This document shows positions 3-58,147 of a stretch of 64,000 bases of DNA, in pieces. Every line of letters starts with the position of its first letter. The first letter of the stretch is position 1. The translations under genes and the position numbers were made by a program. Under the pieces are notes generated by a model. The model made no database searches. It saw nothing but the letters and a program-made list of their open reading frames with translations, and was not told the DNA's origin. Source of the DNA: Candidatus Omnitrophota bacterium (GTDB lineage Bacteria > Omnitrophota > Gorgyraeia > Zapsychrales > JANLHA01); NCBI GenBank assembly GCA_038222225.1, contig JBBRHV010000006.1:1626-65625 (forward strand), in the 5' to 3' direction.

Positions 3-3000
3 TCTGATCAAAGGCCCAATTCTTCAGAGCCACTAGAAAACAATAAAGCGGTTGTTTCCAAGCTTCTGGCCGGGGTTGTGGTTCTGGTGAGCTTGGTATG
101 GCCGCTTGTTTTGTCCAAGGCCTTTGTATCAAAATATCTGGCGTTCACGCTTTGGGGCACATTGGGAGAAGGATATGTTTGGCAGCTCCTCACGTACAGT
201 TTTCTCCATACGAATCCTTTGCATTTGACCTTCAATGTGATCGCGTTTGTTTTCTTCGCGAATTTCATAGAGAGGGCAGTGGGGGTCAAAAGATTTTTGA
301 CTCTCTTTATCGGAGCAAGTGTTGCCGGAGCAGTCTTCCAGGTGCTGGCAATGGCCGCAAACAGTTTCACCTCGCCGGAATTAGCGGAGGCACTGGATAT
401 CACTCCTCTCATCGGACTCTCAGCAGTAGTAGCCGGGCTGATCGGAGCCTTCGGCGTTGTGCTGCGTGATCAGAAAGTGACATTCTTACTGTTGTTCATT
501 ATTCCGTTCCGCATCAAGGCGCAGCGGTTGGCGCAGATGTTGGTCACCGTCAGCATTGCGGCGATCATTTTCAATATAGTTCGCGGGGCCCAGGGCGGGA
601 TCGCCCACGGGGCGCACCTCGGCGGGCTTATTTTTGGTTGGGTTTATACGGAATATTTGCGGCGTGCAGGAAAGATCGATACGTTCATTATTGAAGAGGA
701 GAAACCCAAGGATCCTTCCGGAACCAACGCGGCGGTATTATCCAACTCAGATCCGGAAGGGGGAGTTGTTTCTTATCCGGCCCGTTCCAGCATCAGCGCT
801 GAAGAAAGGGAAGCAGCAAAACAGGGTACGGGCCCGGAAAATCTCAAGGGCTATGTCGTCAATTCACGGAAGATTCTGGGCGTTCCGGTTGAAGGTCTTG
901 AGATCAGTTATTCGGACCGCAGCGGACAAACAGTTGCTGAATATAAGCCGGGCCGTGTTGCCATTGATCTTTTGGGCCTTGGAGCCCGGGCGCCGCCGAT
1001 CGATCTCGAGCATTCTGCAAAATCCCGTCGCTTCCAGAGCATTATTCATGATGTTGTACGACAAATTATATTAGCTTCTCATTATTATGCCCTTTCAGAG
1101 AAAGATGTCCGTCAGGTTTCAGCCCGGCACTTTATCGGCCGGCAGCAAAAAGTTCAGAATTTTCTGGATCAGGAATTTAATCTTCGCGAATTCGGTCTGG
1201 TGTTTGATCCTGCCTATCTTGAGCTTTTAAGAAATTACCAGAGAATTGATCCTCAAATCGAAAGAATTAAAGAGCAGCTTGATCTCTTCAAGGGCGGGGC
1301 TGTGTCGTTTGAAGAGCTGTGTGAAGCTCTGGATGCGCGCGTTATTCTGAATGTGGCATCGCGTGCCTTATTTGAAGTGGGGAACAGTCCGTACCTGGTT
1401 AAAATTTACCGCGGCGGAACGCTGACGGCGAAGGCGTATGCCGCCGAAAAACAATTTTATAGAGAATATAACCCAACGGTCCAGCCGGAGCTGGTTTATT
1501 GTGATGACAATCTGCAGGCCTTGGTTGTGACGGATTTGAACCAGCTGGGATTGGTGCGCATGTTTGATTTTATTCAAGGGCCGTTCATTACGGAAGAATT
1601 GTTGGGTTGTTCGATTTCTTCCATGGCCCATGCCTTGGCGCAGCTGCATAGCAGCGCTGACGTGGCCTCGCAAACCGGTGAGCGGAAATTTGCTGAACTC
1701 AGGCATGAAGTGGACCGGGCGGTGGAGGTCTTAAGAGCGGCCGGGTTCCAAGGCCTTCCCGATGGAAAGAGCCTGGAGGATTTTCTTGCGCGATTCCAAG
1801 ATTCAGTAGTCGGAGAAAATGAACGATTGGTTCACGGCGATTATCTGATGTGGAATATTTTTGTTGACCCGGCAAGCGGAGAGGTGCGGGCCCTCATTGA
1901 CGGTGAGATGAGCGGTCTTGATTCTGCCGCTAAAGAGATGGCGAACACGATCCTGGGATTGATCGATGCCCGCAAGAATCATCCGTTCTTAATCAGTCAA
2001 ACTGCGGAGATGTTACGGTCGTTTTGGAGAGAATATATCCGGGAGACGAAAGACATTACCGGGCAGGAGATTTCTCCGGCGTTTGAGACTCGGGTCCATT
2101 TTTATTGCGCGGTCCAGTTGCTGATTGGCGCCAGAGTTGCGCATGAGAAATGGGCTAAATGGGCCCATTTCAGAATTGAGATGGCCAGGTTTTTCCTTAA
2201 TCAGGAAGCATTTTCATTGGAAGCTTTCATTGAGTTTTTGAATCATAATATTGGCAAACAACCGATCGGTTGGGTCGGGAATTTTGATGTTGCGACTCAG
2301 CACGGGCAGAGGCCGGGCTCGGGCGTTGAGATAATGATTGATGAAACAGGTTGGGCTGATTTCTTTGCCGAGGTTTGGGTTCCAGGAAACATCGGGGATC
2401 CGATTTTTGCATTGGGTATCGGAGCGGAATTACGTGTGACAAACAGAGACACCGGCGTTGTTTCGATTTGGAGGCCAGTGGAATTTTGTCATTTTGCGGG
2501 GAATAATTATCAATTTAGAGGAAGCGTGTTTTATCTCCAGGCGGGATCGTATGATGTGGAACCATCCTTCTCAGCGGATATGGGAGAAACGTGGTTTATT
2601 CCGCAACTCCCTTATGGCCCGTGTCATCTGACAGTGACAAAAGCATTGTCTGGGGAAGCGCCTTCAGAAAAGATAGTGAGTGTGGTCTTTTCTGACCTTC
2701 ACGGTGAGTTGAATGGTTTCCGTTCAGCGCTTGTAAAGCTCGGTATGATTTTACCGCAAAATAACCCGATGGAAGATATTTGGATTTCTCAAGATGTGAC
2801 GGTGGTTGTGGATGGAGATATCATGGATCGTGGTTTGCGACAGAAAGAGTTATACCACTATATCTGCCATCTCATGTTGACCGCCGAAGAAAGCCGTAAT
2901 CGGGTCATCTTTATCTTAGGAAATCATGAGCTGCTTCATCTTCAGGGGACTCCGGATGATTGGACAGCTCATGCGCTTACAGAAGTGATTAGAGAAGGTA

Positions 3001-6000
3001 TTCTTCGAGGAGATATTGTGGCAGCCGCGTATCTAGGTGGGCGTCTGATAGTTCATGCGGGAATTTTACCTTTTATTACCATGGATTTGATAAAGACATT
3101 ACGCCCAGGATTTTTGACTGTCGTTGCCCATCGGTCAGGAAAGTTCGTAAAGGATCTTACCGCGGTTGAAGTTGCCATCGAATTGAATAAAACACATAGC
3201 GTTCTTTCTGCTGACTCTATCGTGAATGAATTCAATCGGAGATTGCGGTTGGCGGTTGAGAAAGGCGATTATTCTGACGTTATTTTCCAGAGAGGGAACG
3301 CTCATTTTGGCGAGAACAAAAGGCCTGGAGAGTCGGGATATATACCCGGAGGCATATTCTGGGCAGACTATGAAAACGAATTGCGGCTGGTTGACCCGCG
3401 TGCGCTTATAGCGCAGATCGGAGGACATAGGGAGGGGAATGCGCTCCGTTGGACAAAGGGAGCCAGGGCTGTGAACGTCAATCTTTGTTATAAAGAGGGA
3501 TTTGGACGCAGCTCCGGAGTCGCTGTGTTTGATGGACAAAACTGGAAAGCTGTTTATTTTGATGGCCGGCCCATGCAAATTATTCCTGCTGTTATGGAGC
3601 GTGCTGTAAAACGACAGACAACAAATTCGGCAGCAGGTCAAGGCGGAACCAACGCGGCTGTTCTTGAGGGTGCGCCTTTTGAAGAACCGGAAACGGGTCG
3701 GATGAGCAGGCGAAGCATGCTGAAAATGCTGGCGCTGGCAGGAGCAAGCTTGCCGTTCATGACAACGACTGCTTTTGCTGATGAACCGACGGTTGATGAA
3801 GTTTTGACGGAACTTTTGAGCACTCAAACAGCGCATGGCCTCATTAAGAGTTTCAAGGGCACAACCGATACCTTCATGCAGAATCAGGCCGTGACCTATG
3901 ATCAGGCAGCCGCCGGGATCGCAGCTCTTGCGGCCGGAAGGACGGCGGAAGCGGTCAGGATTTTTAATTTCTTTTATAACCAGCATAATGGAGGAGATCC
4001 TGTCTGGAACGGGTTTGTGAATATGTATGATGCGACCCGCGGGGTCAAGGGCAACGAGCGCACGATCCACACAGGCCCGAACATCTGGATGGCGATGTTC
4101 AGCCTTCATCTTTATATGGCAAGCAGCGGTCAACAGGCCACGAAGGCCTTGACCCTTGCCAAAGCGCTCATGCAGTGGGCCAGGGGTTTGAATCATCGCG
4201 ATGGAGCGGTTGCCCTTGGACCGGTCCCCAATAATAATATTTTCTCAACAGAACATAACCTTGATTATTTCGCCTTCCTTAAAGGAATACAGTCGTTTTT
4301 GTCCGCGGCAGAAGCGGCGATCGTTCAAGCAGAAATGGACGGGGTTGGAACATGGTTAAAGACACATGCTTATGACCCGGCCAGAAGATTGTTCAAACGC
4401 GGAGCATATGAAAACCCGGTTGTCTATGCTACAGATACGTCAAGCTTTGCATTTTTATTGGGATCGCAGGTTCTGGAAGATTGGGGCATTGTTCGCTCAA
4501 CATTCATCGGCCAGTCCGATGCTGCCTATCGTGTCGGGACACGCGGTTTTGATGTGGCGAGTGTCGAGAACGCCAATTGGACCCCGCGTTCACGTTATGT
4601 CTTCAGAGAGTTTACTCTTCAGATGGCGGTAGGATTTTTGGTGATGGCTGATGATGAACACGATCGAGGCAATTTCACGCTGGAAAAAACGTATCGTGAT
4701 AAGGCTCAGCTCTATGCTTCTCAATCTGGCATAGATGGTGATTATCAATATTGTGAACAGACCGGGGTTCAGCTCTTTTATGATATTCCGAGCTGGAAAA
4801 CAATTAATGGTCAGTCGGCTTCGGTCATGGCCTGGAAGATATTTGCACTTCTCGGTTTCAACCCGTTTGGATTTGTTACAAAGGTGCGGCTGTCCGTCAG
4901 GCGTCTGGCGGCAACTGGAAATATGGAGTTGACTTTGCGCAAGGAAAGTATGGCGTCGCTCACTGCCGAGATTCTTTATTCAGATGACCTGGGAGATCAG
5001 AAAGAATGGAAGAGCGCCGGTTCAGTGGATTTGAGCGGCCTAAGGGCGGTTTGGGTCGATAACGGTTCTCAGACCACAACACATCCGTCGCAAAGCTCAA
5101 GGAGATTCTACCGAGTCTCGGCTGTAAATTCGTCTGTCCAGGGATTGGGCGCAGTCCATCAGGAGTCTAACGGTTTAGTGCCAGAGACGGTATTAATTGG
5201 GTCAAGCGCAGAGTATGGTCAAGAGTTCAAAGATGCGAATGCAGCAGTTTTGCAGGGGAAATTTGTTCAGACAGTGAAGACCAAAGGATCTGGGCTTAAT
5301 CGCTTTGACCTCGGGCGTTGGGGACGCGGGGCACTGCATTCAGTTCTTGCGCTAACACTGCTCACATCCGGTTGTGAGAAAAAAGAGGATACCCAGGGAG
5401 ATGCGTTGTCGGGAGTCGCGGTTCAGCCTGTTGATAGGAGCGCATTGGAGAACAGGATCAAGGAAGAGGTCCGGAAACTAGAGTATTCTGACAAGAACGC
5501 GGAGGATTTTGTAACGATGCTACGTCAATGGAAGAATGCTCAAGGCCAACCGGTTCTTACTGCGTGGGAGCAGAGCATTCTTAATGCCCGGAAACAATAT
5601 GAGCAGGGAGCCATGACAGCCGATCAGTTGGCCGGGATCGAAGCCGGGGTTGTTGGAGAAGTTGCGATGAGGATCGCTGAAGAATTTTCCGCGAATAATA
5701 ATGCTTTTGAATTGACCGATCTGATTGAAAAGAAACAGTCACAGTGTGTCAGCAGGTCAATGGCGGTAGCTATCGTCGGGAATGTACTTGGATTTAAGGT
5801 TGACTTTCTTGATGTTGATGCCAAGGAGATCAGGGCGATTGACGTTCCATTGGCGGAAAGAACTGTGGCGCATGCGGCCACCCTTGTACATTTGACCGGC
5901 GGGACCGTGATCATCGCCGATTCAGCGCTACGGTTTGTAAGCCGGCCGTTTTTAATGGAAGAAACCTACGCCGCAGTCGGGAACTATTGGGAACTTAAGA

Positions 6001-9000
6001 ACAGGAACGAACCGTTGTTGCTGCATGGACGAATCAGGAAGGCGTCTCTTTTAGCAGAGATTTATAACAATCGAGGCAACGCCTATGGAAGAGCCGGTCG
6101 TTATGAGGAAGCCTTCGCGCTGATGGCGAAAGCGATGGAAATCGATCCGGCATTGGCTGCAGCTTATTACAATCGGGGAGTTCAATATCAGGATCTAGGC
6201 CGGGTAGCCGAGGCAGTGGCGGACTATACAAAAGCGATCGAGCTTGATCCAAGAGATGCTGCTCCATATTGCAATCGGGGGAATATTTACAATACCGCAG
6301 GACGGGATGCTGAGGCTGTTGCTGATTATACGAAGGCCATTGAGCTTGATCCGCAATTAGCAGTGGTGTATTTCAATCGGGGAAATATTTATGGCAGATC
6401 AGATCGGCCAGAGGAGGCGATTGCGGATTTGACGAAAGTGATCGGGCTGAATCCGGAAGATGCCCAGGCTTATTACAGGCGGGCAGTGATTTACGGAAGA
6501 GTCGGTCAGTTAGAGAGCGCCAAAGCAGATCTCTTAAAGGTGCTGAATTTAAGTTCGGATGAAAAGCAAAAAGAACAGATCAAAGCTGCTGTTCGCAAGA
6601 TTGATGACATGCTTAAAGAAATGCCTAAGAAGAGCGCATCATCCAGCCACTCTGTTAAAAACGCTGAAACCAACGCAGCGATCCTTTATCCGTCACGCTT
6701 GGTGCCTGGACAAACGCCGGACTGGGCAATAAAATTCAGAACGACGTTGCCTAGCGATTTTGTTGAGGCGGCCGAGTCAGAGGATGGAGAGCAGGGCGTT
6801 GACAAGGTCATGTCGCTGGGGATTTGCCAGGATTCGCCGGACGTCTCGGAGCTTTTATCAAGATTTTATCGAGGATTGATGGAGAATAGCAACCCATCCG
6901 AGGTCCGCAGTCATTTGATTTATGACACGTGGTTAAAACTTAAAGAGAAGAAGATGGATGAATGGAACGCGACATTGGCGGTGTGGTTTACGTATGTGGT
7001 CTTTCAAAAAGCTTTAAGCATAGAAGCAAAACGATTAGCACAAAAGAATGCTCCGGCGCCTTCTGTTGAGGCATCCACAGAAGTCGCTACAGAACCATCT
7101 TCAAAAGGGCAGGAAGAAGGGGCGTCTGCCCGGGAAGATGAGCGTTACTTGGGGATTGTGATCGAGGTGGAAGGGTTTGGCCAGGTCACACTGACCGAAC
7201 GCATCGCCCGAAACAGCCGGACGCTTCTTTTTAAGACGAATCACCCTGGGCTTTTGATCAAACTTTTTGATCTGAACCACACCAGCATCGCCGGAGCCTT
7301 TGATCCGGTGATCGTCCAGAATTTTGAATTGGAACGCAATAATTTTGTCGAGGTCGCGAAGATCGATGAGCTGAGGCCGTATATTCCGCATTATTATCAG
7401 AGCGGCATCATCAAAGAGAGCAAGTACGCTTTCATCGCCATGGAATACATTGAAGGCACGGACTTAAAGAGCTGGCGGGAACAGGTTATTAACGGACGCA
7501 GTGAAAAGACTTTGACCGCCATTGAGTTCTGGCAGATGATGTCCCAGGCGATGAGCATTTTAAGAATATTCCACAAGTATGACCTGATCTTTTCTGATTA
7601 TAAACTTGAGAATATTCTAAGGCTGGCAGACGGACGTCTGAGGTTCGTTGATCTGGGAAGTGTTTTCCTTATTCATGGCTCGATCAAACCGCAGGATTTT
7701 CCGTATTCAGCAACAATGGAGGATTCGGAAGTTTTTGAAAACGCTGTCACTTTGAAGAACGGAAAGCCGCTGGCGAAAATTTCCGATATCTTCTGTGTGG
7801 GTGTGAGCCTGTTTGAATTCGCCACAGGCCAGGACCGTTTGACGCTGAGTCGTGAATATGCGGATATGCTTTTGACTCATTTACGCGTTATCAACCCGCG
7901 GATGTCTGAAACCCGGCTGTATTTTAATTATTATCCTCATCTTAAGGGAAAATTACCGACGCTGGAAGATCAGCTGCGTGAAGGATACGTCTTTTTTGCT
8001 GATTTTTGGCATTTGCTGCACGAAGTTCTTAAATATACCCAAGACGGTTATGAAGACATGGGACAGGCTGAAAAGGATGTTGTCCTGTTGTCGGCGGGGA
8101 TCGATTTTATCCGTAAGCAGCTTGGGCCTCTGGGCTGGGTGGCAGAGCCTGTTGCCCGGGCGACAGTTCTTAGACGCGTCCGGGTTGACAGTATTCATGA
8201 TCTGCTTTTGACGTTCCACAGCCCCTTGGGAGCGGAGGTCGTTGATGACCTTCGCCGTCACAACTGTTTTGTTGGTTGTGCTGAATCACAGTTCGGACAG
8301 CAGGGTTTCGTGGAACAGATGAGCACTTGGGACGTGCGTCTGAATTCGCACACTCAGCATTGGGCGGTCCAGGCGCCGGTCGCATTCAGGCATGATACAC
8401 AAGAAGCCGGTGCGTTGTTCTTGCAGCAGACCTACACGGATGAGGATGGCCATCGGTATTATCACATCACAAGCATGGAGGAGGCGGATGAATTGCCGAA
8501 CGGGGAAAAATTGACCCTGGCGCATTTGGAGGATGATCCGTACGCTTGGCTGGGAGCTCCATCGCAGGAAGATAATCAGGGTGGAAACTCTAAGAAAAAG
8601 CCTGTTCCAGCTCCTGAGAAAGAAAAGATAGTCATTGCGGGTAACGAAAGTGAGAAGCAGAAGAAAAAAACCAAAAGAAAATCCAGGAGGCAAAAGCTTC
8701 CAAAACCGACGACACGAGAGGAGGCCATCGCGTTGCTGATCCAAGCGGCCGGACGTGTTCCTTCGAACATTGCAAAAACCCCGCATCTTGTGGCCGACTT
8801 TTCACGCGGAGAGTTGACCGCAGCCAAGATCAAGAGCATGGCAAGGCAATGGGGGATTACGGGATATGATGTGCCGATCTCGAATTTGCCTTTTAGAGCG
8901 TATTCACGGAATGCTTCTTCAGACGAGCAAACAAATTCCTCTGTTCTGAACGAAGATATTTCAAAAACCGGACCTCCGCAGGGCTTTATTCATGTGGATG

Positions 9001-12000
9001 TCCATCCGGAAATTTGTTCGTTTAACGCCCTTGCTGAAGTTCAGCATCAATTTGGGGAGCTCACCACCATTGTTGTTGTTTATAGACGAGCCGCCGCTCT
9101 TCTTCAAAGGAAGCCGGTTTATGCCTCGCGTGAAAATGATATCATCATTCATTCCGACGGGATTATTTCTCAGGATCAGCTTATTTCGAAAATAAAAGGC
9201 CCTATCGCGCGCCTGTTGGTAACCGGCAATGAATTTGAAAGCTGTGTTGCCCGGGCTGTTTTTTCCATCAGAGAATTTATGCGGGATCAATATTCTGCCG
9301 GGTTTGTCTTGGATGTTCATTTTCCGATGGATTTGATCGTTGCCAATCGTCATGACTATCGCGATGGGGGATATCAAAAGATGATCGCGAATATAAAAGG
9401 CGGGGACTTTTTCTACAGCTATAAATTTCAAGCCCGTCGGATTGCCTATGACATCTATGATGGAACCGAACTGATCTGCCCTTGTGGGGAGGGAAGCGAA
9501 AATATTTCCAATCTTTATGTATGGCCATCTTTACAGAGCATGAAAGATGAATTAAGCCGAGGAACCGGCGGGACCAACGGGGCTGTTCTTGAATCAGGAG
9601 AGGGCGGCGCCTACAAGGAATTGATTTGTCGGTTTGACATGAAAGAAGATTATGAGGCGGATGATTGGAAGGAATCACGGGTTCTTAAGCGCGTGGCACT
9701 TATGAAACAGATCAGGTTGGGTTGGAAATATCCTCAGATGGGAGAACCGTCGGAACAATGGCTCAATGAGCTGAGAGAACTCGTTCTTCATCGTCTTTGG
9801 ACAAAGCTTCAAAAAGCACATCGTGGAGACATGTTTTTCCCTCAAGACATGGTTTCTCTCAATCGGTCGCTGAATCAGCCGTTTGTTTTTATCGTCGATG
9901 AACTTTTAAAGAACGCCCTTGATGCCCAGGCCTTGGCAGGGCAAAGCGGAAATGTCCATCTTGCGAGATCGTTGCAAGGCGGAACATTCGTGATGGCGGT
10001 TTCTGATAACGGAATCGGCGTCCGTCGCCCATTCTTAGGCTCAGAGCAGCTGGCTTGTATTGAGTCTTTGGCAGATCAGCAGAAGAGACGTAATACTCGT
10101 TTGGAAGCAAGTGATGGGGCTGGATTGATCTGGGTTCAGTATCTGGTCGCCATGCGGGGAGGTAAGCTTGAAGTCGAATCTCCCGGTCGCAATGAAGCCA
10201 GGACTACGGTTGTTGTGTCCTTGCCGGCGGATGCGTTAACGGTCATTGACAAGACGGGCTTAGGTTCTCAGACAAATGCTGCAGTCCTTCAAAAGAGAGA
10301 AGATGTCGCTACGCGGTTTATTTTTAGGTTAGCTGATCATTATGGTCTTTCTTCCACTTGTGATCCGCAGGAGATCCTTCAGGTTCTTCGTGCCAGGGGA
10401 ATCTTGAGTTCAGGGGAAGAAAGGGCGTTTGTCAGATATAGAAAAATTTTAAAACAGATGTATCCGGAGCTGAGCCTTGGGCAGGCTGAAGCACGCTGGA
10501 CGGAGGGCTACACATTTTTCGGGAATAATTCTTCTGAGGATTGGGAGCTTTCCGGACTGACGGAAGATTTTACGGTCATGGTTAAGAAACACATCGAAGG
10601 GATCCGGGCCGTTGAACACACCGATCATCCTGCGGATCAGGGCTGGTGGAAGGAAGATGGGCTGAAAATAAGAGTGATCCGGATTACGGATAGTCTTGAT
10701 TTAAAGGCGGCGTTACCGAACGAAAAAACAGAAAACCTGCCGCTGTCATCTGATGATGAAAACGGTTCACTGCACCTCTTTGAGTTTTTGTTCAAGAAGA
10801 TCTTTATTGAGCCAAAATATTTTGGCCTGGTAGCTTTCAAAGAAGGAAGGCCTGTTGGTGTATATGGGGTTTTTGTTTTAAATGATTGGAGAACGATCTC
10901 TGGGCGCGGATTATATGTCGTTCCATGGGAAAGGTATAAGAAAACAAATATCGGGTGGATGCTGGTCTCAAGGATGGCGGAATTGTTCGCGCTCAATGGC
11001 TATAAGTATCTTTATATCCCTGTGGCCAACCGTCCGTCGGCGCAGAAATTTTTTGAGAACGTGTCGGACAATACTGGACGCTTCCAGTTTTTCACAGAAA
11101 CAAAACGGAACGATGACGGAAAAATTCAAAAGGTTGCTGTGAAGCTGCAGGAAAGGTTCACTCCGGTTCAATGGGACATTGATCTTAAGCGTCAGATCGG
11201 CCAAGTCAACAGCGCGGTATTAAATACGAGCCTGTTGCAGCAGGTCCAAAATATGGAGGCAATGTTTAAAGCCTATGAATCGATTCTTAGTGACCATGGC
11301 CGACAGATACACGAGAGAGTTCGAGTGGTTTTAAGAGCAGCTTCTCAAGGCGTGATGAATGCAGAGCAGCAAAAAGAAGTTCGGGCGCTCGTGGCGTTGA
11401 TGCCTGATCCGCAGCATATTGATATTGAATCCGGCGGAGAAAAGAATTGGATCCGTTGGTTTGATTTAAGCCCGGAAAGACTGGGCGCATCTTTAGATCA
11501 AAGCATTGCCGATGGATGTGCGTGGCCGTGCCTGCATTGTGCGGCGTACAATGGCCATGCCAAAACAGTGATGGAGCCGCTTCCTGTTGTGATCGCAAAA
11601 ATTTTAAGCAGAACACAAACGGATATTATTTATCCATTCCAGTTCGATCTGATTTCTTGGCGGGATCTTTTCTTTGGAGTCGGCATTTCGGGATTAGCAG
11701 AGTTTATATCACGGTATAACCCGCAATATCAATTACGGTCATTGCCGACACGAGGTTGGGATAGCGATGATGCCTTTGTTCAGAACGAAGCCCTGCATCT
11801 TGCGCAGCTTAAAATCGCTAGTGGTATGTTCATTCTTTCATTCCATCTGTGCCATCAGCGGTATGACATCTTGCCGGCTATTGCGCAGGCGGTCAGGAAC
11901 GGAGACCGTGCAGAACTCGATGCACTGATCGATGTTTATGCAGCACGTTATGCGAATGTGATCGCTACGTTAAGTCCTGCGCTTGATCGGGTCAGCGTAT

Positions 12001-45000: not shown

Positions 45001-48000
45001 AGACGACGGATCAGCCGGTCATTGAACGGATCCAGAACCGTTGGGAAGTTGGGGAATTGGAAAACATGCCGGACATTTACGAGCGCGTACCTGACCGTCT
45101 TCAGGCCCTTGCGCTGGCCCACCGCTATGTTCGTCAATATGGGCTTAAGTCGATCCTCTTTCTTGAAGGAGTCGGTCGAAGAAAAAGTAGAGAGAGAAAC
45201 GAGATCGGCGGAGTGGGCGTGGGACTTTATAACAGCCGGTATACCATCAATCGATTAGGGGGAAAGATTGATCTTGATGATACGCGCTCGGGCCGGACCA
45301 CGTTCGCGATCGGATTTTTTGTCCGGGAATTTTCATTGAGGCAAAAAGGATCGGATGCGTTTGTTAGCGGTGCTAACTCTGCGGTTTTTAGGGGATCGAA
45401 GGATTCTTCTCTTGATTCTCTGCTTGAGAGCATCATGGCGTCCCACAAAGAGAGCGGGGTGCGATCAACGCCTTGGGCTGCAAGGATGGACAAGCCGCTT
45501 GACCGCACAGGATTCAACGGGCCGCACCTTTTCGCGAATATTGAATTAACGAACGAGCAGGTTCGGTTGTTCCTTATCCTTAAAGAGCATAAACAGGCGC
45601 TCCTCAATTTACTTGGTGAAAGCTTCAGAGCTGTATTTGGGAAAGCGGCAGGGATCCTTCTTAATCAAAATGTTTCTGGATTTAAGGCAACACAGGTCGA
45701 TGAACAGTATTTAACTTGTACCGTTGGTGATCTTTTTATTCCAGCCATCGAAAATGCTTTTGATGCCTATATGAAAAAGAGCGGCCAATCATCCGATGTT
45801 CCGTTGGTTCTTGAATTTTATATTTCCTTTGATGGCCGGGTGATGATTGCGGAGATGCGCACCAATGGTCTGTCGTATGATTCCGGTGAGACCGCGACCT
45901 CCGAAAAGAAAAAGGACTCGGATCAATTGGGTGGAAAAGGGCGCGGACTGAAAGCCATTGATGAATTTGCTGCATGCATCGGCGGGATCCAGTGGGATAT
46001 CCGAAACCGTAAAGATCTTTTTCCTGAGGATGCGGAAGGATCTGTTTTTTATGTATCTCTTCAACGGGATAAGCTTTCTCAAATCGTCAGTCATGCGGCG
46101 AAGTTTTTTGGTCTGGGTTCGTGCGCGACATGCCCAGAGGATAGCGTCAGAAGAAATGCCGACGCAACGAGCAAGAATAGTGGAGCGAATTCTGCAGTCT
46201 TGAACGGAAACACGGATGATTCGACGGGAAGTGATTCTCAAAAGAAGCGCTTGGAAGATTTCTTGAGCATGGCTAAAAATTCACAGTTGGAGGCGTTTTG
46301 GTTAATTCATGAATTAAAATTGGATCAAATTGAGCGGGCCGTTTCCGTTGGCAGCGGCGTGCTTGCGTTGGCGCCGTTTGAAATGATTTTAATCGAAAGC
46401 GGTGTTGTGGTTACGATTTTTGATCCCGATCCAAACGTTCAGGAAAATTGGGCGCAGTATAAAGCGCGAAGGCTTAATGGCCATTGTGTTGACCTTGTAC
46501 CGTTATCCAGATCAAAATTTGGAAGTTCAGCACAGCCGATCCAGGGTGCGCAGATGTATATTACGATGAATGTTTTTGGTCGTTCGGGCATTCCTATGAC
46601 AGAACGTGCACAAATGTTAGGCCTCTTAGCGAAAAGTTTTAAAAACGGGGACTTTCTTTTGAATGGATGGTGCAGTCCGCTGGCGTTTGAATTGATTGCA
46701 AATTCGCCGGCACCCCAAGAGGATGTCAGGGTCGAGACCGCGCTCAATCACGAGCATATGCTGGCCTTGGTGAATCTTTTGGAATCGCGGCATATGATGT
46801 TGGAGCCTGTCCGTTTCGGCAGGAAGGAGGACGTTCTTCATCAGAGGGACTTTTATCGAATTATTCCGCTCGGATCACCGGTGATGCCGGTAGCTGATAA
46901 AAATCGAAAAAAGAAGGGTGAGCGCCAGCCTGGAAAGAGGATGTCCGAAGATAAAGGCGCCAATGCTGCTGTTTCGCAAAATAATGAAGGCGTTCCGGCG
47001 GATGATCGAGGGATCGATTGGAAAGGATTAAGGGCAGGGCTTGAGCAGGGAAGTTCCTTGTCGTTCGGCAAGGTCAAGCAGCTGATCCGGGCAGGGAACA
47101 AGAAGGTGTTTGGTCTGCTGCAATCTGTCGTCGCCGGCCACAGCAAACAAGAGGCTGCGGTTTGGCATTTTATTTTGACGGTGGATCTTGATCGGGAATA
47201 TTCAGCCCATTTGGGTTCGAACATGAGAAATTTGAAAATGGCTGTTATCCGGGCCGCGCAAAAGGATCTTGAAAAAGGCGGTGTGCCCGGGTCCGATCTT
47301 CTGGAGCAGTCTGTGTCCTATGGTGATGAAGATTCTTTGAGCGCTCTTCAAAGGGTGGCCTTCGGTGTCAGCAAAGGGAAATTCCTTGCGATCAGAGTAA
47401 TCTTTGAGGCGCAAAAGGAAAAGAGTCCGGCGTCTCCGCAAATACGGGCTGTTTGCCGGGGATTTTTGAACACGATCGCCTATAAATTAGGCGAAGGGAT
47501 CGAGAGGGATCCAGAAACGGGGTTACTCATACTTGGAGCGCTTGTTTTTGAGATGCCTTGTGAACCGATAGGGGAAGGGGCCCGCGGGATATTAAAAAAT
47601 ATCGTCGATGGGAAGTGCCGGTTGACTAAAGAGAAAAGGATTGAGGCGTTGAATTCTTTGGTGGAATGCGTTCGTGACGGAGGCTCTGTCGATTTGCTGG
47701 AGTGGATTTTGAAGGGCGTGGCCGCGCTTGACGGCAAAGGCTTCCCGCGTCTCAATAGCTGGAGCGTTCAAGAGATGCTGGGTTCGCTTTTCCACAATGT
47801 TTCGGTGGCGCCAGTATTGCGCTTGTATGCTTATGGACTGATGCCATTGCCGGAAAACGAGACCGAAGCGCTTGTATTAGCTAAACGTGTGTTACATGAA
47901 AAGGCCCATTTGACCTCCTTGGAACTATTTTCAGACAGCGGTGTTTGGCACAATGAAGAGCTTAAGGTTTATATCTTGGCCGTGTATTTGATTATGGTTG

Positions 48001-51000
48001 CGAAAATAAAAAGAAGCAGTTCCTTTTTTTCACGATGCCAGAATCAGGAAGATGACATCGACAGCATTATGACCGGCACGATGCTGAAAGAAGATTACGG
48101 CGGGATTGGTAACAGCAAGCTGCAGTTCGGGCGCAAAGATCTTATCGAGGACCGCAATGAACCGAAGATGATGTTCGGTACCTGCGCCCACGAGTGGACG
48201 CATATTTTTAACCGTTGGATTATTGAAATTTATAGGATCGAAGAAGAGGATGGACAGGATGCGATCGATGAATTTTTGGCGGATCTGGGTGCGGAAATGT
48301 TTTTTGGAGAAATGGGCTGGCAGCAGGCAAAAGAGGTGCGCCGGAATAAATTTGTATTTCAGCACGCGAAAGTATTTGGGCGGAGTCCCCGGGCAGATCA
48401 GATCAGCCATGAGCAGCATGAGGCGGCCCGTGTCGCCTATAAGGAGATGCAGCGGTTTTTGGAAGCCAGGGAAAGGGAGACCGGTGAACGCGTTCCTCTT
48501 TCTGGAGAGATGCTGTTTTATCTTTGGGGTGCTTTGGGAGAGAGGAAAGCAGAGGAGATATCGTTTGTCATGTTGCAGGATTTGCTGCAGGTCCGGTATG
48601 GTTATGCGGAGTTTGTTCATCGGCGGAAAAACAAGTTCCAGTCCCGTCCCCTCGCGGATAGCGAGATGGAAGAAAAAGGAGTAACGCAACGTGAACCTGA
48701 TAAGGACATTGTTTATGTGATCAGATGTTGGCATGTAGAGGAAGAGGAGCGCGCCGAGCTGTTTGAAGGACCAAATGTTTTACGAATTGCTGTTTCATCC
48801 GGCACAGAACCGCAGGCCAGCGGATCCCAGGATATTCAGGTCATACAAGAGGCAACAAACCCGAAGGATGGAGAAGCGCCATCTTCTAACGCCAACTCTG
48901 CGGTTTTAAACTATTGCGTCGCGTGTTTTGCCGGCGTTGTCGCGTCTCCCTGGGTCGCATTGCCGGTTGACGTTGTCGCAAGCATTGCCATGATGTGGGG
49001 AATCATTGTTATGTCTGAGGGGATCGAGATGCGGCACTCTTTAATTTTTAGGGCTCTCACCTGGATCAAAGACCGTTATGAATCACGCAAGGTCACGATC
49101 GAATTTTTGAAAATGGTCTTGAGGTTTGCAAACATGGTTGGTTTGTATGCGCTTTTATCTTTTTCGTGGGGAACGCTCATTTTGCAATGGATCTCGTTAT
49201 TAAGCATAAAGCTGGATTGGCCTGAGTGGATGACTTTTATAGCAGCGCTCCTACCGGCAGCAGCCTTCATCAGCGGAGTAAGTATGGTGGTGGTCCCGGA
49301 GATCATCCGGGTGCATAAGGAATGGAAGAGATATCTTAAGAATATCCGGGGAGATCGTGCTCCGGAATGGATGGCCCAAAAATACAGCCATATCTCCGCG
49401 GAAGAATTGCTCCACCGTTCGGTGAGGATGAAGCGTATTGGGCGGGTCTTGTTAGCTGCTGTTTGGGGAATAGGTATCATTCTTTTGGCGATGTCGTTCC
49501 AGCATGCTCCGCACATGAAAGTTCTTAAAGGCATAAGCATTGTTGTTCTGTTTTTTTATTATCAGACATTGGTTGCAGCCCGGGAAATGAAGAAAATGGC
49601 AGAAGAATTGGAGCAGACAAAAATTCTAAGGGAGGCTTCTTTAAAAGCCAACCGATCCAGGGCAGGGCCGCCGGTCAGTTCTTATTCGGATTTTAAAGGT
49701 GGTATCAATTCAGCAGTATTGAGTGAACAGAGCGAACCGGATCATACGTCTCCCAATAAAGCAATTTTTGATTTTGTTCGACAGAGTCTCGGGGATGGAA
49801 CAACCCAAACAGTGAATGAGGTGGCGGAAGCGCAAAGACCCGTGATTCTGCAGGGTGGCAGAGATCAGGCGCTTAGAGCAGGTAATGATTCTTTGCCTGA
49901 TGATTTAAGAAAAGTCAATGCCGGTTATCAAGCGGACATTTATTTCTCGCCGAGTCGACGGATGTTTTATAAGGTCAGGAAATCCACGCTGTCTGCCTAC
50001 TATAGGTCATTACGGAATCATCTTCTTGATCGCGGGCTGTTCAGAACATCGGCGTATCTGTGGATTATGGACACGCTGCGGAAAAATTATCAAAGGTCCG
50101 CTGGAATGAAGACCGTGGAGGGTCAGCCTTTTTACGATATTCTTTCGCAGGCCGGTAAGGCCGGACGGCCGAACACCGGTGTTCTTGTCCGCATAACGAA
50201 GATGCTTAAGGCCTTCAGAGCGGTTGTTAGTTTTTGTATTGTTATGGCTGGCAGTATGTTTATTTTTTCAAAGACGGTCAGGGCTGAGAAGGCGCTTTTC
50301 CATGACAATTATTTCAAGGGTTATGAGGACATGCTTAAGTTTGGGTTTGTGCAGCAAGGATATGTGGCAGATTTTCGAGTGATCAGTGTCCCTGCGGAGG
50401 ATCGGAATGGAATTTTTAAATGGAGATGGTTGGAGCGGAACCGAAAGGTCATTGAACAGTCGGAAGTGGTTGAACTGATACAGGTGTTGCGGGAAATGAC
50501 GGATGCGCAGTTTTATGTAGCGGTCGAGCGTTACATTGAGATCCAGCATGCGTTTTGGCGCTGGGGATTTTTTAATCATGCTTTGGGATTTTTGGGAAAT
50601 TATGGATATGTCAAAGATAATGGTCAGACCAACGGACCACTGGTCCTTTTTGACCCGGGAGAGATCGTTAGTAATGGTGATAACGCCGAAGATAAAATTT
50701 TGGAGGTAGTCGAGCGCAAGAAGGAAGGGGCGTATAAGGACCTCAACGCATTGAATCCAGTTTGGGGGCAGTATTACAAGGTTAGAGTTGAGGCTGAACT
50801 AAACCGCTCCAAATTTTACGAGCTTTGGTGCAGTGAAGCCGGGTGCCGGATAGAGACAATCCAAAATTATTCCACTAACGCCGCGGTCGGTTCCAAATCC
50901 CGTTTCGTTAGCCGAAAAAGGGAAAGAGAAGATCGTCCCGCGATGGCCTTGCCGAGTTGGGAAGAGTTCAAGGACCCTCGACGGTCATGGCTGGTAAAAT

Positions 51001-54000
51001 TATATATTCTTTTGGTGCGTCAGCCGGTAAGAGAAGAATATAAACTTTTAGCCGAAATATGGAGTGTTGCGGGCTGGCTTGGGGAGCATGGCGTCAATGA
51101 GAGCAATATGCATGAGCGGTGGGTTCAGGAGCTTTTGGAGCTGCGTACGACGATTAATGCTTTTACCCGGTATCCGGTCCGGTGGTTCGGCCTCTTTGGT
51201 GCAGTACTGATGTACTGGCCTGCGGTGTTCATACATTTTGTTTATAATGCCCGATGGTTGGTGCGCAGGGTTATCCGGGAGGTTTTGTCAGGGGTGAAGG
51301 GTTCGACAGCAACTGTTTTTGTCGGCGAAGCTGCCATGGTCAGAGAAAAGAAAACATCCTCGGCATATCAAGTCATTGTTGAAGAGCTTTGGAATTTGAG
51401 GAGTTTTTATCCTGGGAAGATCTATCTGCGATCAAAGACTATCCTTTGGCTGATGGTGTTCGCTGCCCGATGGATTCTCCGGAAACAGTTATCCACCAGC
51501 TCGGTCGTGGTGCTCGAAAAGAGCAATAACCAGGGTGAAATAGGAAGTGGGCATTTACGGGTTTTCCGGGCATTTGTTTTTAGTTTTGGTTTGAAGTTGG
51601 AATTATTCAGGGCAGATGAGTTTTTGCTGATATCGACAGAAGAGCAGTTTCCAGCCCAATTCGACAAGTTGAAAAATTTATATGCGATGATGAAGCCTTC
51701 CCAGGCTTTTCCCTTAATGGGGGGATGGGCGGCCTCACCGGATCTCGCTATGATCATAGTTTCTTATATCATGAAATATCGTCCAAAAGTTGTTCTTGAT
51801 TTGGGCAGCGGAACTTCGACAATCATCATTGCTCAGGCTTTGAAAAATTTATCCTGCAGCCAGTCCCGCCGCACTTCTGCGGAACGGGCAGGATTCCGCC
51901 TAACGGGTGAAAAGATTTTGGGGGCTCCACAGACAGGGCATGTGTGGTCCATGGAGCAGGACGCAGCCTATGCAGGAAAGACGCGGCAAAATTTGGATGC
52001 CCATGGGCTTGGTACTTACGCGACGGTTATTCATGCTCCGATCAGAGAATATTCGAATCACAACGGCACGGGAAGATGGTATGACGTTTCCCGGCTAGAG
52101 GGTATCGGCCCGATTGATTTGGTGATTGTTGATGGGCCGCGTGGCTCAGGTCAAAGAGCTGGGGCCATGCCGATTCTTTTTGATCATTTAAGCGATGAGG
52201 TTGCGGTGATCATTGACGACACGAGCCGGGTGGCAGAACAGGAAATGGTTGAGAAATGGCTGAGAGATTTTGAAGGGTTCCGCGCGCAGGAAATTGACAC
52301 GGAAAAGGGGACGATTATTTTAAGAAAAACAAAAGCCGCCATGGATGGCGAAGAGGCAGAGCCTATTTCCTTAGAGTCTGAAATCAATGCCGCGGTGCTT
52401 GGAAATGAATCTTCGCCTAAAGAGGATGGGACAAATCACCAGGAAAAATGGTTTTTCCGAGATGCAAAATCCGGTGCGGTCGAAGTCCATGAAATTGCCG
52501 ATGATAATGGGGAAACAATTTGGCAAGTTCTCCAGGAACAGGAAGCGAGAGAGCAACCGGTTTCTGACAATAGCGGGAATAAGATCCAGGGAGCGACAAG
52601 CGCTGCGGTGCTGGGCAGTGGAAAAGTTGGCCGCAATGATCCTTGTCCCTGCGGCAGCGGGAAAAAATACAAGAAGTGTTGTGGGGGGGCTTCCGCTACT
52701 CAACCTTTCGCAGCGCCGGCATTGAACACAAGAAAGAGCGTCGGACGATCGTTCAGGTTTATTGCCATGGCTGATGGTCAGGTTCAAGATCTTTCTCCGC
52801 CGGCAGCGTGGGAATCAGGTTCCGTGGCCGTTTCTCCCCAGCCTGTCCATGGGCGCGCTGCTTTAACCGGGACGGTCATTCCGGCCAGACTTGAGCATGC
52901 TGAGCGCATACTCGCGCTATCCAAGAGGGTCTCCTCATCTACCCCTGTTTCGATGAATGTGATCATCAGATCCATACAGTCCATAGCTGAAGATTTCAAT
53001 GGTGAGCCGAGAATTTTTGTTTACATAGAGAAGAACGTGGTCTTAGGGTATACGTTCGCTTCCATTTATCCTTCAAGGAAACTGGTTTATATGGTTCAAA
53101 CATCCGTTGATCAACAGCATGAAGGCCGCGGGATCGGACGTTATCTGCATCAGTATTTGTTTGATGTTGTGCGAAGCCAGGGACACAAAAAAATCTTTTC
53201 AATATCGAATCCTCGTGCGGCGAGCATCCTTTGTAAGGATGGTTTTCAGGTTTTGACAGACGCCCGAAAACTTCCAGTGATCAGCATTGATCTGCGCGAT
53301 GATGAAAATGTCGTATCTTTGAATGCGACGTTGGAGGATGTTCTCTGCGTGGGGATTATGCGGGTTCTTCTGCCGACCAATCTGGTTGCCATTGATCAGG
53401 CGTTAATTCATGGGGATATGCCCGGGGTTCAGCATCTTGTCCGGACGAATTTTATTTTTGCCTGGCTGCGAGCCAGCGGCATTCTTCCTTCGGATGAATT
53501 CCGACGGAAGATCATTGCGGATTTTAACAGACGAGGGGCTGGTAGGGCTATGCAGCAGAATGAAGAGACGCTGGTTGTGGCCTGTGCGGTAGGGACTTCA
53601 CAACATCCGTCCTCGAGAGATGAAAAATTATGGCAAAGGGAGGGACGTACATTGCCGGCGTCTTTTGATCCGTTAGAAGATTTTGCGCAGCATTGTGTGG
53701 ATGTTGTTTTCCACCCCAAAGAATATGAACAGAGGTATCATTCGGCTGATGAAAAAGATCGACCTCGTTTATTGGCGCAGTATGCAGTTGTGAGGGATGT
53801 TCTTCAGCAGTCCCTTCCTGGCGCAAGAGATAGAGGACAGTCTTCTGGCGGAAGGGGACAGTCCCCCCGCGGGGACAATCCCCAATCGACCAACGCCGCG
53901 GTGCAGGTTTCTGATTCCATTCCGACGCCTTTGACTTCTGAATTTATTCGAACGTTGTCCGTTGGAAAGAGAAGTGTAACGTCATCCGAAAAACGCATCC

Positions 54001-56891: not shown

Positions 56892-56956
56892 CTGGCCGGG
56901 ATTTCTATAAAATGGTTTTGGTAAAAATAAAAAATTATATGAATTTTAGATTTTAT

Positions 56957-57009
56957 GTATAATAAGTGAACTTGCGGTTGTTTTATTAGGGATATTGAAG
57001 ACGAAGGAG
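56957..57009 (+). promoter_or_regulatory. Possible promoter -10 element and Shine-Dalgarno for the aldolase gene
   Basis: AT-rich 126-nt intergenic region. TATAAT at 56957-56962. AAGGAG at 57004-57009, 8 nt before ATG 57018. No convincing -35 found. Confidence 0.4.
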
Positions 57010-57017
57010 AGGAAAAA

Positions 57018-57968
57018 ATGTATAGACCGGAAATTCGGGTGTTTGACTGCACGATCCGCGATGGCGGGTTGATGAACAACCATTTATTTGATCACAGTTT
57101 TGTCAGAGATGTTTATAAAGGATTATCCGAGGCTGGGGTTGACTATATTGAGCTCGGATATAAAAATTCCAAAGATCTTTTTTCGCCGGAGGAATACGGC
57201 GCCTGGAAATTCTGTGAGGATGACGAAATCCGAAAAGTGACCGAAGGCATTGAATCCAATGCCAAGATCTCGGTGATGGTGGATATCGGCCGGGTGAATA
57301 TGGAAGATATAAAACCGGCTTCTGAGAGTCCCGTGCACATGGTCCGCGTGGCCAGTTATGTGAAGGATATTGATAAGGGGATCTCGATGGCCAATGAATT
57401 CCATGATAAGGGTTATGAAACCACCATTAATATCATGGCTATTTCCAAAGATCAGGGGCCGGACCTCGAAGCCGCTCTTTATCAGATCGAAAAGGAAAGC
57501 AAGGCGGATGTGGTGTATATTGTGGATAGTTTTGGGTATTTTTATCAGGAAAATATTGAGCATTTGACCAAGTTGTATAAGAGGATTTTAAAGACACGCG
57601 AGATTGGTTTTCATGGTCATAATAATCAGCAGTTGGCCTTCGGCAACACGATTGAAGCGATTATCCATGGGGCGAATTTTCTGGATGCAACAATTTTCGG
57701 GATCGGCCGGGCTGCCGGGAATTGTCCGATCGAGCTTTTGCTCGGGTTCTTAAAGAATCCGAAATTTGATATCCGTCCGGTTCTTGATCTGATCTCCCGG
57801 GATTTTGTCCCGTTGCGTGAAAAGATCGAATGGGGATATGTCATTCCTTACGCGATCGCCGGTATGCTCAATGAGCATCCTCGCGCTGCTTTGGCTTTGC
57901 GAAAGACGGAGAAGAAAGAGAATTACCGTGATTTTTATGAGAGTTTGACTAATACGGGGTTGGATTAA
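57018..57968 (+). CDS. HMGL-like (DRE-TIM) aldolase / pyruvate carboxyltransferase-domain protein
   Basis: 'VFDCTIRDGG' N-terminal motif and 'FHGHNNQQLAFGNTIEAI' (HxH metal site) typical of the HMGL/4-hydroxy-2-oxovalerate aldolase/isopropylmalate-synthase superfamily. Strong SD. 316 aa. Confidence 0.8.
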   Translation: MYRPEIRVFDCTIRDGGLMNNHLFDHSFVRDVYKGLSEAGVDYIELGYKNSKDLFSPEEYGAWKFCEDDEIRKVTEGIESNAKISVMVDIGRVNMEDIKPASESPVHMVRVASYVKDIDKGISMANEFHDKGYETTINIMAISKDQGPDLEAALYQIEKESKADVVYIVDSFGYFYQENIEHLTKLYKRILKTREIGFHGHNNQQLAFGNTIEAIIHGANFLDATIFGIGRAAGNCPIELLLGFLKNPKFDIRPVLDLISRDFVPLREKIEWGYVIPYAIAGMLNEHPRAALALRKTEKKENYRDFYESLTNTGLD

Positions 57969-57999
57969 AAGACAGCGTAAAGGGAAGCGGCAGGTGATA

Positions 58000-58130: not shown

Positions 58131-58147
58131 CTGTTTTTAATTTGAGT

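Follow-up and report, generated by a model that had tools for sequence, protein, structure and literature searches.

The window analysed here, a 64,000-nt stretch of contig JBBRHV010000006.1 from Candidatus Omnitrophota bacterium, holds a single stop-free open reading frame (ORF) on the + strand (positions 78..56891) that encodes 18,937 amino acids (aa); a stop codon at nt 45-47 lies upstream of its first GTG, at nt 78. This giant ORF consists of 52 modules bounded by a recurring hexapeptide, hereafter called the junction, which has the consensus [TVAIS]-N-[SAG]-[AS]-[VI]-L and occurs in 51 strong and four weak copies.

Junctions were scored with an iterated 8-column position-specific scoring matrix (PSSM), a site being called strong at >= 12 bits. 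The matrix converges on 51 sites above this threshold, the interval of 8.1-12 bits is empty, and three weak sites score 6.7-8.0 bits, the fourth (TNASVN) 1.8 bits. When these four degenerate sites (aa 8934 TNASVN, 13041 VNSSIF, 14054 TNSAIA, and 16933 TNAAVG) are added to the 51, position 1 is T25/V11/A11/I4/S3/G1, position 2 is N52/S3, position 4 is A39/S16, position 5 is V47/I7/L1, and position 6 is L in 43 of the 55 sites. The spacing is 19-1011 aa with a median of 323.5, the first site starting at nt 723 and the last ending at nt 56084; three pairs of sites are merely 19-37 aa apart, including tandem pairs at 19 and 21 aa. An initial annotation of this DNA had listed 55 sites by eye, and its residue counts, spacing, and coordinates are all reproduced.

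The two controls proposed in that annotation, shuffled sequences and unrelated proteomes, both set the giant ORF apart. The expression N[SAG][AS][VI]L matches 39 times in the ORF, whereas 200 amino-acid shuffles average 0.375 matches and never exceed 4, and the PSSM finds 0.4-0.7 sites per shuffled sequence as opposed to 51. In unrelated bacterial frames from 79 other loci it gave 16 matches in 500,157 residues, that is 0.61 per 18,937 aa, and in the frames flanking the giant ORF in the window it gave none. The enrichment is about 80-fold over shuffles and unrelated proteomes, and the motif is a genuine feature, far from random. Chance, compositional bias, or an artefact of assembly can be set aside as practically negligible explanations: they would have to account for 51 sites where about 0.6 are expected and for a stop-free frame of 56.8 kb, while the same 3' end recurs in an independent Logan contig and the same junctions are found in four other assemblies.

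All junctions lie on the + strand, and the scores given with them are PSSM bits; those that open modules discussed below are placed there. TNAAVL is found at 723..740 (23.6 bits) and 10272..10289 (22.8 bits), and as a tandem pair 19 aa apart at 31239..31256 (22.4 bits) and 31296..31313 (22.8 bits). Other variants beginning with T are TNAAIL at 6669..6686 (18.5 bits), TNSSVL at 8931..8948 (20.2 bits), TNGAVL at 9573..9590 (20.5 bits), TNSSVI at 15384..15401 (16.8 bits), TNGSVL at 15849..15866 (17.8 bits), TNASIS at 18789..18806 (14.5 bits), TSASVL at 21003..21020 (13.7 bits), TNASVI at 22155..22172 (15.6 bits), TNASIL at 22350..22367 (16.4 bits), TNSAVV at 35490..35507 (19.4 bits), TNAAVQ at 53889..53906 (18.0 bits), and TSSAVL at 54570..54587 (17.1 bits). 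VNSAVL recurs at 12375..12392 (20.6 bits), 13635..13652 (21.4 bits), 18171..18188 (19.7 bits), and 32346..32363 (22.2 bits), and VNSSVQ stands at 5124..5141 (16.2 bits). Position 1 is A in ANSAIL at 19371..19388 (16.9 bits), ANSSVL at 27078..27095 (21.1 bits), ANSAVL at 27681..27698 (18.4 bits) and 46185..46202 (22.1 bits), ANSAVF at 45372..45389 (17.7 bits), and ANAAVS at 46959..46976 (16.9 bits). It is I in INSAVL at 16743..16760 (17.3 bits), 37269..37286 (18.2 bits), and 49704..49721 (21.2 bits) and in INAAVL at 52383..52400 (19.8 bits), S in SNSSVL at 36768..36785 (17.5 bits), and G in GNSAIL at 44595..44612 (16.3 bits). The weak copies are VNSSIF at 39198..39215 (8.0 bits), TNSAIA with polar flanks at 42237..42254 (6.7 bits), TNAAVG at 50874..50891 (7.3 bits), and TNASVN at 26877..26894 (1.8 bits), the last being doubtful and included in the count of the initial annotation.

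The hexapeptide forms a small hydrophobic island with a mean Kyte-Doolittle (KD) hydropathy of +1.15. On each side it is bordered by about 10 residues rich in G/S/T/D/E/K/Q/N, giving a polar linker of about 20 residues, and about 70% of the sites have G, E, or Q at position -1. The polar, low-complexity flanks described initially appear as 75% disorder-promoting residues at -10..-1 and 70% at +6..+15, versus 54% ORF-wide (z about 10 and 7). A Pfam scan of the ORF found no domain envelope that spans any junction. An N-glycosylation sequon was considered and rejected, as most sites read N-A-A or N-S-A.

Modules were annotated by Pfam, NCBIfam, and PDB sequence searches, the dark ones also by Pfam at E <= 1. 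About half of the giant ORF has no match in these domain searches. The remainder holds about 17 distinct Pfam families, none of them dominant, the commonest being GNAT with about five copies. Besides the acetyltransferases, the content includes an APH kinase plus a metallophosphoesterase, a TPR protein, a Ser/Thr kinase, two HATPase_c modules, a COG1565 methyltransferase, a GT2-like transferase, an HTH regulator, a SEC-C/GNAT protein, a module of eight transmembrane (TM) helices ending in HPr, a pyridoxal phosphate (PLP)-dependent dehydratase, and an alanine dehydrogenase. Module 1 is a rhomboid intramembrane serine protease domain (171..662, + strand; Pfam PF01694, E=2.4e-23; weak match to rhombosortase TIGR03902) whose catalytic motifs are intact: HxxxxHxxxN at nt 207-236, GLSA at nt 411-446, and AHLGG at nt 612-638. 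Module 11 carries a CPBP / Rce1-like intramembrane protease domain (12528..12803, + strand; Pfam PF02517, E=5.5e-13; weak NCBIfam matches to MrtJ/MrtS).

Where modules can be identified, they equal whole proteins. The alanine dehydrogenase (34200..35441, + strand; PDB phmmer 8hyh_A, E=3.5e-49; also Pfam and TIGR00518) is complete: it follows the junction ANAAVL at 34107..34124 (20.6 bits), and 28 aa past that junction its sequence begins to match solved chains, from their residue 2-3 onward. The PLP enzyme upstream, a threonine/serine dehydratase-like module opened by TNAAVL at 32952..32969 (22.8 bits), ends 27 aa before the same junction. A 19-aa SEC-C zinc motif, located 14 aa after TSAAVL at 52596..52613 (16.9 bits), aligns in its NCBIfam matches mostly to the ends of small proteins. 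Stand-alone homologues of module 3 are Omnitrophota proteins of normal size, and module 10 has a stand-alone homologue (P0010) in a stop-codon-bounded ORF of a JGI metagenome (JGI 3300042261).

In a self-BLAST, just three paralogous module groups plus the TPRs were detected, and otherwise only the 6-aa motif recurs. A structural tandem repeat protein was accordingly rejected, the modules not being homologous to each other. One group is a trio with a common N-terminal region (11205-12374, 38805-39130, and 43383-44594), opened by VNSAVL at 11205..11222 (21.3 bits; module 10, CxxxCxxC radical-SAM-like), VNSSVL at 38805..38822 (18.8 bits), and VNSAVL at 43383..43400 (19.8 bits). Two of the three have a CxxxCxxC motif (CAWPCLHC and CTEPCLHC), and by these motifs they look like radical-SAM-type enzymes missed by Pfam. 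Another is an internal duplication, 22719-23624 versus 55902-56756 (aa 7548-7849 and 18609-18893; 45-47% identity), in which the duplicated block covers a module end, a junction, and the next module. Its junctions are TNAAVL at 22908..22925 (19.1 bits), opening the internal paralogue, and TNAAVL at 56067..56084 (21.1 bits; kept in the related loci L002, L082, and L083), opening the conserved C-terminal module (56085..56888, + strand; 57-68% identity in relatives). Nothing else in the ORF is shared with the syntenic giant ORF of relatives. This module ends in a hydrophobic helix, its family has the invariant sequences RVGSVVHxSSSHxQDP and DRMGKT, and it has no Pfam or PDB match. At a smaller scale, a 180-nt tandem duplication at 41109-41470 (two copies, 91% identical), the one finding of the tandem repeat program TRF, forms a coiled-coil repeat in the 1,038-aa module 39.

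The giant ORF is flanked by housekeeping genes, namely an HMGL-like aldolase, a KDPG aldolase, a radical SAM enzyme, mnmA, mutL, and mutS. The nearest MnmA (81% identity) belongs to the metagenome-assembled genome Candidatus Omnitrophota bacterium RA.bin146, where a syntenic giant open frame is present. There (L002 12981-14057 versus window 56891-60353) the HMGL-like gene comes immediately after the giant ORF and the radical SAM gene next, and this region lacks the KDPG aldolase and a 515-aa membrane protein that the window has. Three further observations concern the window itself. ARAGORN reports an 87-nt tRNA-Gly(GCC) at 25332-25418 inside the giant ORF, probably a false positive with no Rfam match; an antisense ORF of 353 aa (3135-4196, - strand) within the giant ORF was treated as spurious; and throughout 1-64000 the coding strand has G > C, all 4-kb bins showing a positive GC skew (0.11-0.23).

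Homology of the RA.bin146 giant frame to the window ORF is limited to the C-terminal ~290 aa, and its junctions INSAVL, TNAAVL, TNAAAL, and MNSAVL stand between other modules, including Ser/Thr-kinase-like, GDH-containing, and SPASM-domain (radical-SAM-type) ones. Its MNSAVL (L084 2786-2803, aa 929), with Met at position 1, lies outside the regular expression and suggests that position 1 admits more residues than are seen in the window. A profile of the 51 junctions, searched against 1.84 billion representative proteins, gave six matches. Two, P0003 and P0004, are genuine relatives, each a contig-length piece of a giant ORF in ENA assembly ERZ795054, the first with six junctions and only module 3 in common with the window (77% identity), the second with eight junctions and only module 5 in common (44% identity). 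The other four (P0001, P0002, P0005, and P0006) were rejected as unrelated tandem-repeat proteins that contain the pentapeptide via repetition. Two of these, P0002 and P0006, are small, with 4-5 tandem units each containing TNAAVL (RETNAAVLTGLIDST x5 and ...TNAAVLGS... x4), probably a coincidence. As a control for the profile, the window ORF would score 358 bits (E = 3e-109), or 240 bits if embedded in 95,000 aa. Since this score is high and nothing else in the library comes close, either only a narrow Omnitrophota clade has the motif or the searched library lacks giants of this kind. Among 5.8 billion proteins there was no homologue of a 597-aa stretch with several junctions (aa 7345-7941), and modules 10-11 as a query found no related loci in GTDB genomes or JGI metagenomes.

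Across the relatives (RA.bin146/L002/L084, L082, P0003/L085, and P0004/L086) there is one junction per ~280-540 aa, with a largely different module set. Where boundaries are orthologous, these relatives retain the motif despite an unrelated module on the upstream side and divergence of the neighbouring linker residues. In paralogous modules of the window the motif variant accompanies the downstream module, and position 1 correlates with position 3, T going with A and V/A/I with S (Fisher p = 7e-4). The correlation, together with the motif travelling with the downstream module, points to a partial spread of junctions by descent, each along with the module that follows it.

This mosaic pattern raises the question of whether the junction is a nucleic-acid element or a neutral scar, such as a site of in-frame recombination or fusion, an RNA processing site, or a region of internal initiation. 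Module content differs between relatives with junctions at the breakpoints, the motif moves with the downstream module, and the position 1-3 correlation and the preference for GCG in the Ala codon at position 4 (62% versus 34%, p = 0.003) hint at some spread of junctions by descent. However, synonymous codons at the junctions otherwise follow ORF-wide frequencies: Ser is encoded by both AGC/AGT and TCN, Leu by five of its six codons, and Asn by 22 AAC and 26 AAT, the remaining exception being the Thr codon at position 1, which departs modestly from ORF-wide usage (p = 0.005). Codon choice is thus free at the junctions, which argues for selection on the peptide rather than on a DNA repeat, and the junction constraint acts at the peptide level. 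A DNA repeat or the boundary of a mobile cassette was therefore rejected, third codon positions not being conserved apart from these two modest exceptions. Internal translation starts were also rejected as a general explanation, given that Met is not enriched downstream of junctions (22 modules observed versus ~20 expected) and GTG accounts for only 13 of the 45 Val codons. No Rfam match was found, and a neutral scar would not persist while adjacent linker residues diverge. Overall, we regard a nucleic-acid element or scar as very unlikely.

The positions of export signals relative to junctions bear directly on what the peptide does. Module 3 begins TNAAVL-EGAPFEEPETGR-MSRRSMLKMLALAGASLPFMTTTAFA|DEP, that is, the junction at aa 1191 (3648..3665; 23.6 bits; kept in the orthologue L085) is followed after 18 aa by the signal peptide MSRRSMLKMLALAGASLPFMTTTAFA of the twin-arginine translocation (Tat) type, with an AxA end (3702..3779, + strand). 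The signal is kept in P0003 as MLSRRQMLKGLVLAGMALPFMTSRAYA|DEP, and in stand-alone module 3 homologues the domain follows a membrane helix, i.e., it lies outside the cytoplasm. P0003 has a second Tat signal (NRRGFLK) in the context ...VISAVL...NRRGFLKSLAVLCGG, where VISAVL is junction-like and falls below the 8-bit threshold. Module 5, a TPR protein, follows the junction ANAAVL at aa 1720 (5235..5252; 19.0 bits) and starts with a lipoprotein-type signal ...GALHSVLALTLLTSGC, ending LLTSGC (5313..5375, + strand). Its orthologue in P0004 reads TNSAVL-RARTVLAAGLAGLVALSGC (the orthologous junction in L086), with the signal directly after the junction and no Met to start from; judged from this sequence, a cut within TNSAVL would leave a canonical lipoprotein signal peptide.

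The same arrangement is seen in six membrane modules, whose first helix lies 21-28 aa past the junction. They are preceded by SNASVL at 23844..23861 (18.3 bits; signal-anchor helix at +26 aa), SNSAVL at 28773..28790 (20.0 bits; first TM helix at +26 aa), VNSSVL at 30411..30428 (18.8 bits; +25 aa), TNAALL at 40269..40286 (15.1 bits; +28 aa), ANSAVL at 48891..48908 (19.0 bits; +21 aa), and ANSAVL at 55056..55073 (20.2 bits; +22 aa); TNAALL is the second of the 21-aa tandem pair, the first being ANASVL at 40206..40223 (18.8 bits). Most junctions are more than 20 aa away from any hydrophobic segment. Between the signals of modules 3 and 5 there is no intervening hydrophobic segment with a KD mean >= 1.6, and module 5 is followed by ATP-dependent cytoplasmic modules with no helix between. 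Two successive N-in/C-out signals without a return helix cannot both function in one uncut chain, nor would a Tat signal embedded within a 2-MDa protein be expected to work. Given these signals just after junctions and the topology conflict, cutting at or near each junction before export is the simplest reading.

We therefore favour, with somewhat better than even confidence, the interpretation that the giant ORF encodes a bacterial polyprotein that would be cut at the junctions in the cytoplasm by a sequence-specific endopeptidase. According to this model, about 50 originally independent Omnitrophota genes would have been joined into one reading frame, their fused products including membrane and exported proteins as well as enzymes, kinases, acetyltransferases, and regulators. 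A polar linker of about 20 residues marks each boundary, with [T/V/A/I]-N-[S/A]-[A/S]-V-L at its centre, and the hexapeptide would serve as the recognition site of the endopeptidase. The chain would be cut in the cytoplasm during or soon after translation, before export, and each released module could then fold, oligomerise, insert in the membrane, or be exported via its own Tat, lipoprotein, or signal-anchor sequence. The initial annotation saw here about 55 separate proteins joined by a standard connector; this view gains from the unrelated, gene-size modules that are complete where identifiable, and is also backed by the export signals after junctions and by a connector that is kept in relatives at differing neighbours. 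A fuller version, in which about 50 unrelated proteins made from one 57 kb ORF of a free-living or episymbiotic bacterium are released, in the manner of RNA viruses, by site-specific proteolysis at a universal hexapeptide, through a dedicated and so far unrecognised protease, and the modules are shuffled between genomes as junction-bounded cassettes, seems to us just slightly better than an even bet.

The principal competitor is a mega-protein that stays uncut, in which the hexapeptide would be a linear motif in flexible linkers, either docking a chaperone, scaffold, or secretion factor or forming a short organising strand. A hydrophobic AVL island within a polar linker is the anatomy of a binding motif too, the search of the ORF for a processing protease came up empty, and the literature often treats giant proteins of Omnitrophota as single products associated with the membrane (bioRxiv 10.1101/2023.11.21.568195). 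The Tat and lipoprotein signals directly after junctions, conserved in orthologues, are difficult to reconcile with an intact chain, as are the consecutive N-in/C-out signals without a return helix and the interleaving of oligomeric cytoplasmic enzymes with exported and polytopic membrane modules. Moreover, tandem junctions 19-21 aa apart make poor spacers. We consider an uncut product unlikely, although of the alternatives it deserves the most weight.

If the polyprotein is cut, the putative scissile bond is N-A|A-V-L or A|V-L. Either bond would give a new N-terminus of A, S, V, or I in almost all cases, residues that the bacterial N-end rule classes as stabilising; in several modules, cutting after L would put L, F, or Y at the N-terminus. 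The pattern [T/V/A/I]-N-[A/S/G]|[A/S] fits the rule of a small P1 and a small or beta-branched P3 residue known for signal peptidase I, birnavirus VP4, and herpesvirus assemblin, the Ser/Lys-dyad type being among such enzymes. Candidates for the processing enzyme within the ORF are the HExxH module (aa 16038), the CPBP module, and the N-terminal rhomboid. The first is the 644-aa module 44, with the sequence TCAHEWTHIF...AIDEFLAD: its HEWTH...(x18)...AIDEFLAD (48189..48284, + strand) combines HExxH with a downstream Glu in a gluzincin-like signature and makes it a candidate zinc metalloprotease. As a lead, it resembles the thermolysin-type signature HExxH...NExxSD, and a thermolysin-like enzyme, which prefers a hydrophobic P1', would fit an A|V-L cut. 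Other HExxH modules follow junctions in L084 (GHESVHL) and P0003 (YHERFHL); the HExxH modules of the window, P0003, and L084 have no detectable mutual homology.

Several points weigh against the polyprotein interpretation. No soluble protease was identified in the giant ORF or its 7 kb flank by Pfam, NCBIfam, and PDB searches, and the HExxH region of module 44 has no Pfam or PDB match and an unusable AlphaFold2 model. Both recognisable proteases, rhomboid and CPBP, are intramembrane enzymes; nothing links the CPBP module to the junction site, and the NCBIfam scores of both are far below cutoff. For the rhomboid, the active site would be periplasmic and the junctions cytoplasmic, making it topologically unlikely as the processing enzyme. 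The initial annotation also held that sites lie outside domains and between unrelated domains. The absence of any Pfam span supports this in general, but the junction VNAAVL at aa 7724 (23247..23264; 21.6 bits) lies inside a module (aa 7611-7922) that is continuous in homologues: the C-terminal paralogue and three orthologues run uninterrupted, with SGGVNAAVLVP standing against SMAEA/AITAA. Hence not every site separates unrelated domains, a junction can split a polypeptide that is single elsewhere, and junctions can be gained or lost within an otherwise single polypeptide. AlphaFold2 gave mean confidence (pLDDT) values of 33.5 for the C-terminal module, modelled from a two-sequence alignment, and 36.6 for the HExxH region, modelled from a single sequence; both models were unusable, and at pLDDT 33-37 the linker disorder stays a compositional estimate. 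Finally, the export signals could in principle be recent relics, though they are conserved between orthologues.

The N-terminal rhomboid deserves separate comment: the polyprotein might be cut by its own module 1, with the junction as a rhomboid recognition motif, and the ORF does open with a rhomboid whose catalytic Ser, His, and HxxxN are intact. The rhomboid recognition motif has a small P1, a large hydrophobic P4, and a hydrophobic P2' (Strisovsky et al. 2009). A cut between positions 4 and 5 (A|V-L) matches two of these three key positions, P1 (A39/S16) and P2' (L in 43/55). P4 does not fit, however, being T25/A11/S3/G1, thus T, A, or S in about 70% of sites, versus V11/I4, and the site should be in or near a TM segment, which is absent from the vicinity of most junctions. 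Basic residues after TM6 of the rhomboid put its C-terminus, together with the first junction, on the cytoplasmic side, whereas the active sites of rhomboids open to the outer, periplasmic face, as in the GlpG topology. Tat substrates must be freed in the cytoplasm. The P4 misfit, the distance from the membrane, and the opposite-face topology together make the rhomboid an unlikely processing enzyme, and self-cleavage by module 1 an improbable account of the locus.

Separation on the ribosome, through peptide-bond skipping or release with continued translation in a bacterial analogue of 2A/StopGo, would yield separate proteins with free N-termini without a protease. It would fit the outcome of the protease search, and the junction is a short sequence under conservation as a peptide. 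Nevertheless, the junction has no likeness to D(V/I)ExNPGP, and its consensus is without Pro or Gly-Pro, whereas known arrest and skipping peptides have conserved Pro or Gly-Pro. To our knowledge, no peptide-skipping mechanism of the 2A type has been described in bacteria, and this proposal, pure inference, is as improbable as the scar.

The initial annotation knew of no described bacterial system with this architecture. This holds for the connector only: giant multi-enzyme Omnitrophota ORFs have already been published (bioRxiv 10.1101/2023.11.21.568195; 10.64898/2026.06.07.730766), whereas the connector motif is undescribed in the searchable literature, where we found nothing relevant on the junction motif strings or on an Omnitrophota polyprotein. 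The window ORF shares with these giants, class 1 of the second of the two papers, the phylum, a length of >10,000 aa, and many Pfam families with none dominant, and its HATPase_c, GNAT, methyltransferase, and radical-SAM-like content matches their 'signal-transduction/regulatory' community. The difference is that the published accounts report no recurring junction, linker, or cleavage motif, and this ORF has one. West-Roberts et al. (2023) proposed cleavage by C39 or S8 domains, with information on the cleavage points absent (bioRxiv 10.1101/2023.11.21.568195), and a 2026 survey of 5,761 long proteins makes no mention of a linker, motif, cleavage, or polyprotein (bioRxiv 10.64898/2026.06.07.730766). 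The Archaeovorin/dockerin-type giants (West-Roberts 2023) have dockerin, C39 or S8, and SecA-related domains; in this ORF, Pfam and NCBIfam find no dockerin, C39, S8, or SecA DEAD domain and only the 19-aa SEC-C zinc motif. Rhomboid/rhombosortase and CPBP (MrtJ/MrtS) sorting systems are similar in that the ORF has both a rhomboid and a CPBP domain, with many sites per presumed enzyme, a small P1, and a hydrophobic P2'. Their signal, in contrast, lies at or within a TM helix and is usually C-terminal, and here the sites are mostly soluble cytoplasmic linkers with a P4 misfit.

Among precursors with several products, the multi-core type (cyanobactin PatE, cyclotides, polyubiquitin, and nematode polyprotein allergens) likewise has cassettes separated by a repeated recognition sequence. 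Cyclotide precursors are cut after Asn by asparaginyl endopeptidases, and the junction Asn followed by a small residue recalls such sites. In these precursors, however, the same or a similar small cargo is repeated, and here there are about 50 unrelated full-size proteins. Viral polyproteins (picorna-, poty-, nido-, and birnaviruses; pp220/pp62 of African swine fever virus) are made from one ORF that encodes unrelated proteins, with a short conserved peptide in an exposed linker at each boundary. The core [T/V/A]-X-[A/S]|[A/S] is reminiscent of the sites of birnavirus VP4 and herpesvirus assemblin, as 'SAVL' is of the coronavirus nsp4/5 site TSAVLQ|S. By anatomy and general knowledge rather than homology, a viral polyprotein with protease sites would be the closest functional analogue; the difference is that here the gene is chromosomal in a cellular organism, with about 50 products including exported and membrane proteins, and the processing is putative.

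What is new here is the conserved junction motif; giant multi-enzyme ORFs and protease-processed polyproteins were already known. The literature leaves open whether giant Omnitrophota proteins function as a single chain or are cleaved, and at which points. A junction at protein boundaries, ahead of export signals, makes this question testable and predicts exact neo-termini for metaproteomics. It also provides a rule for splitting giant ORFs into units for prediction and annotation, and defines a substrate for a protease search. If the interpretation is true, it would be the first concrete cleavage map for giant genes of Omnitrophota, and the sequence-specific site and its protease might be useful tools. 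Polyprotein expression would then not be an essentially viral strategy, but one used by cellular genomes at the scale of an operon or larger, with consequences for gene calling, estimates of proteome size, and gene regulation in ultrasmall bacteria.

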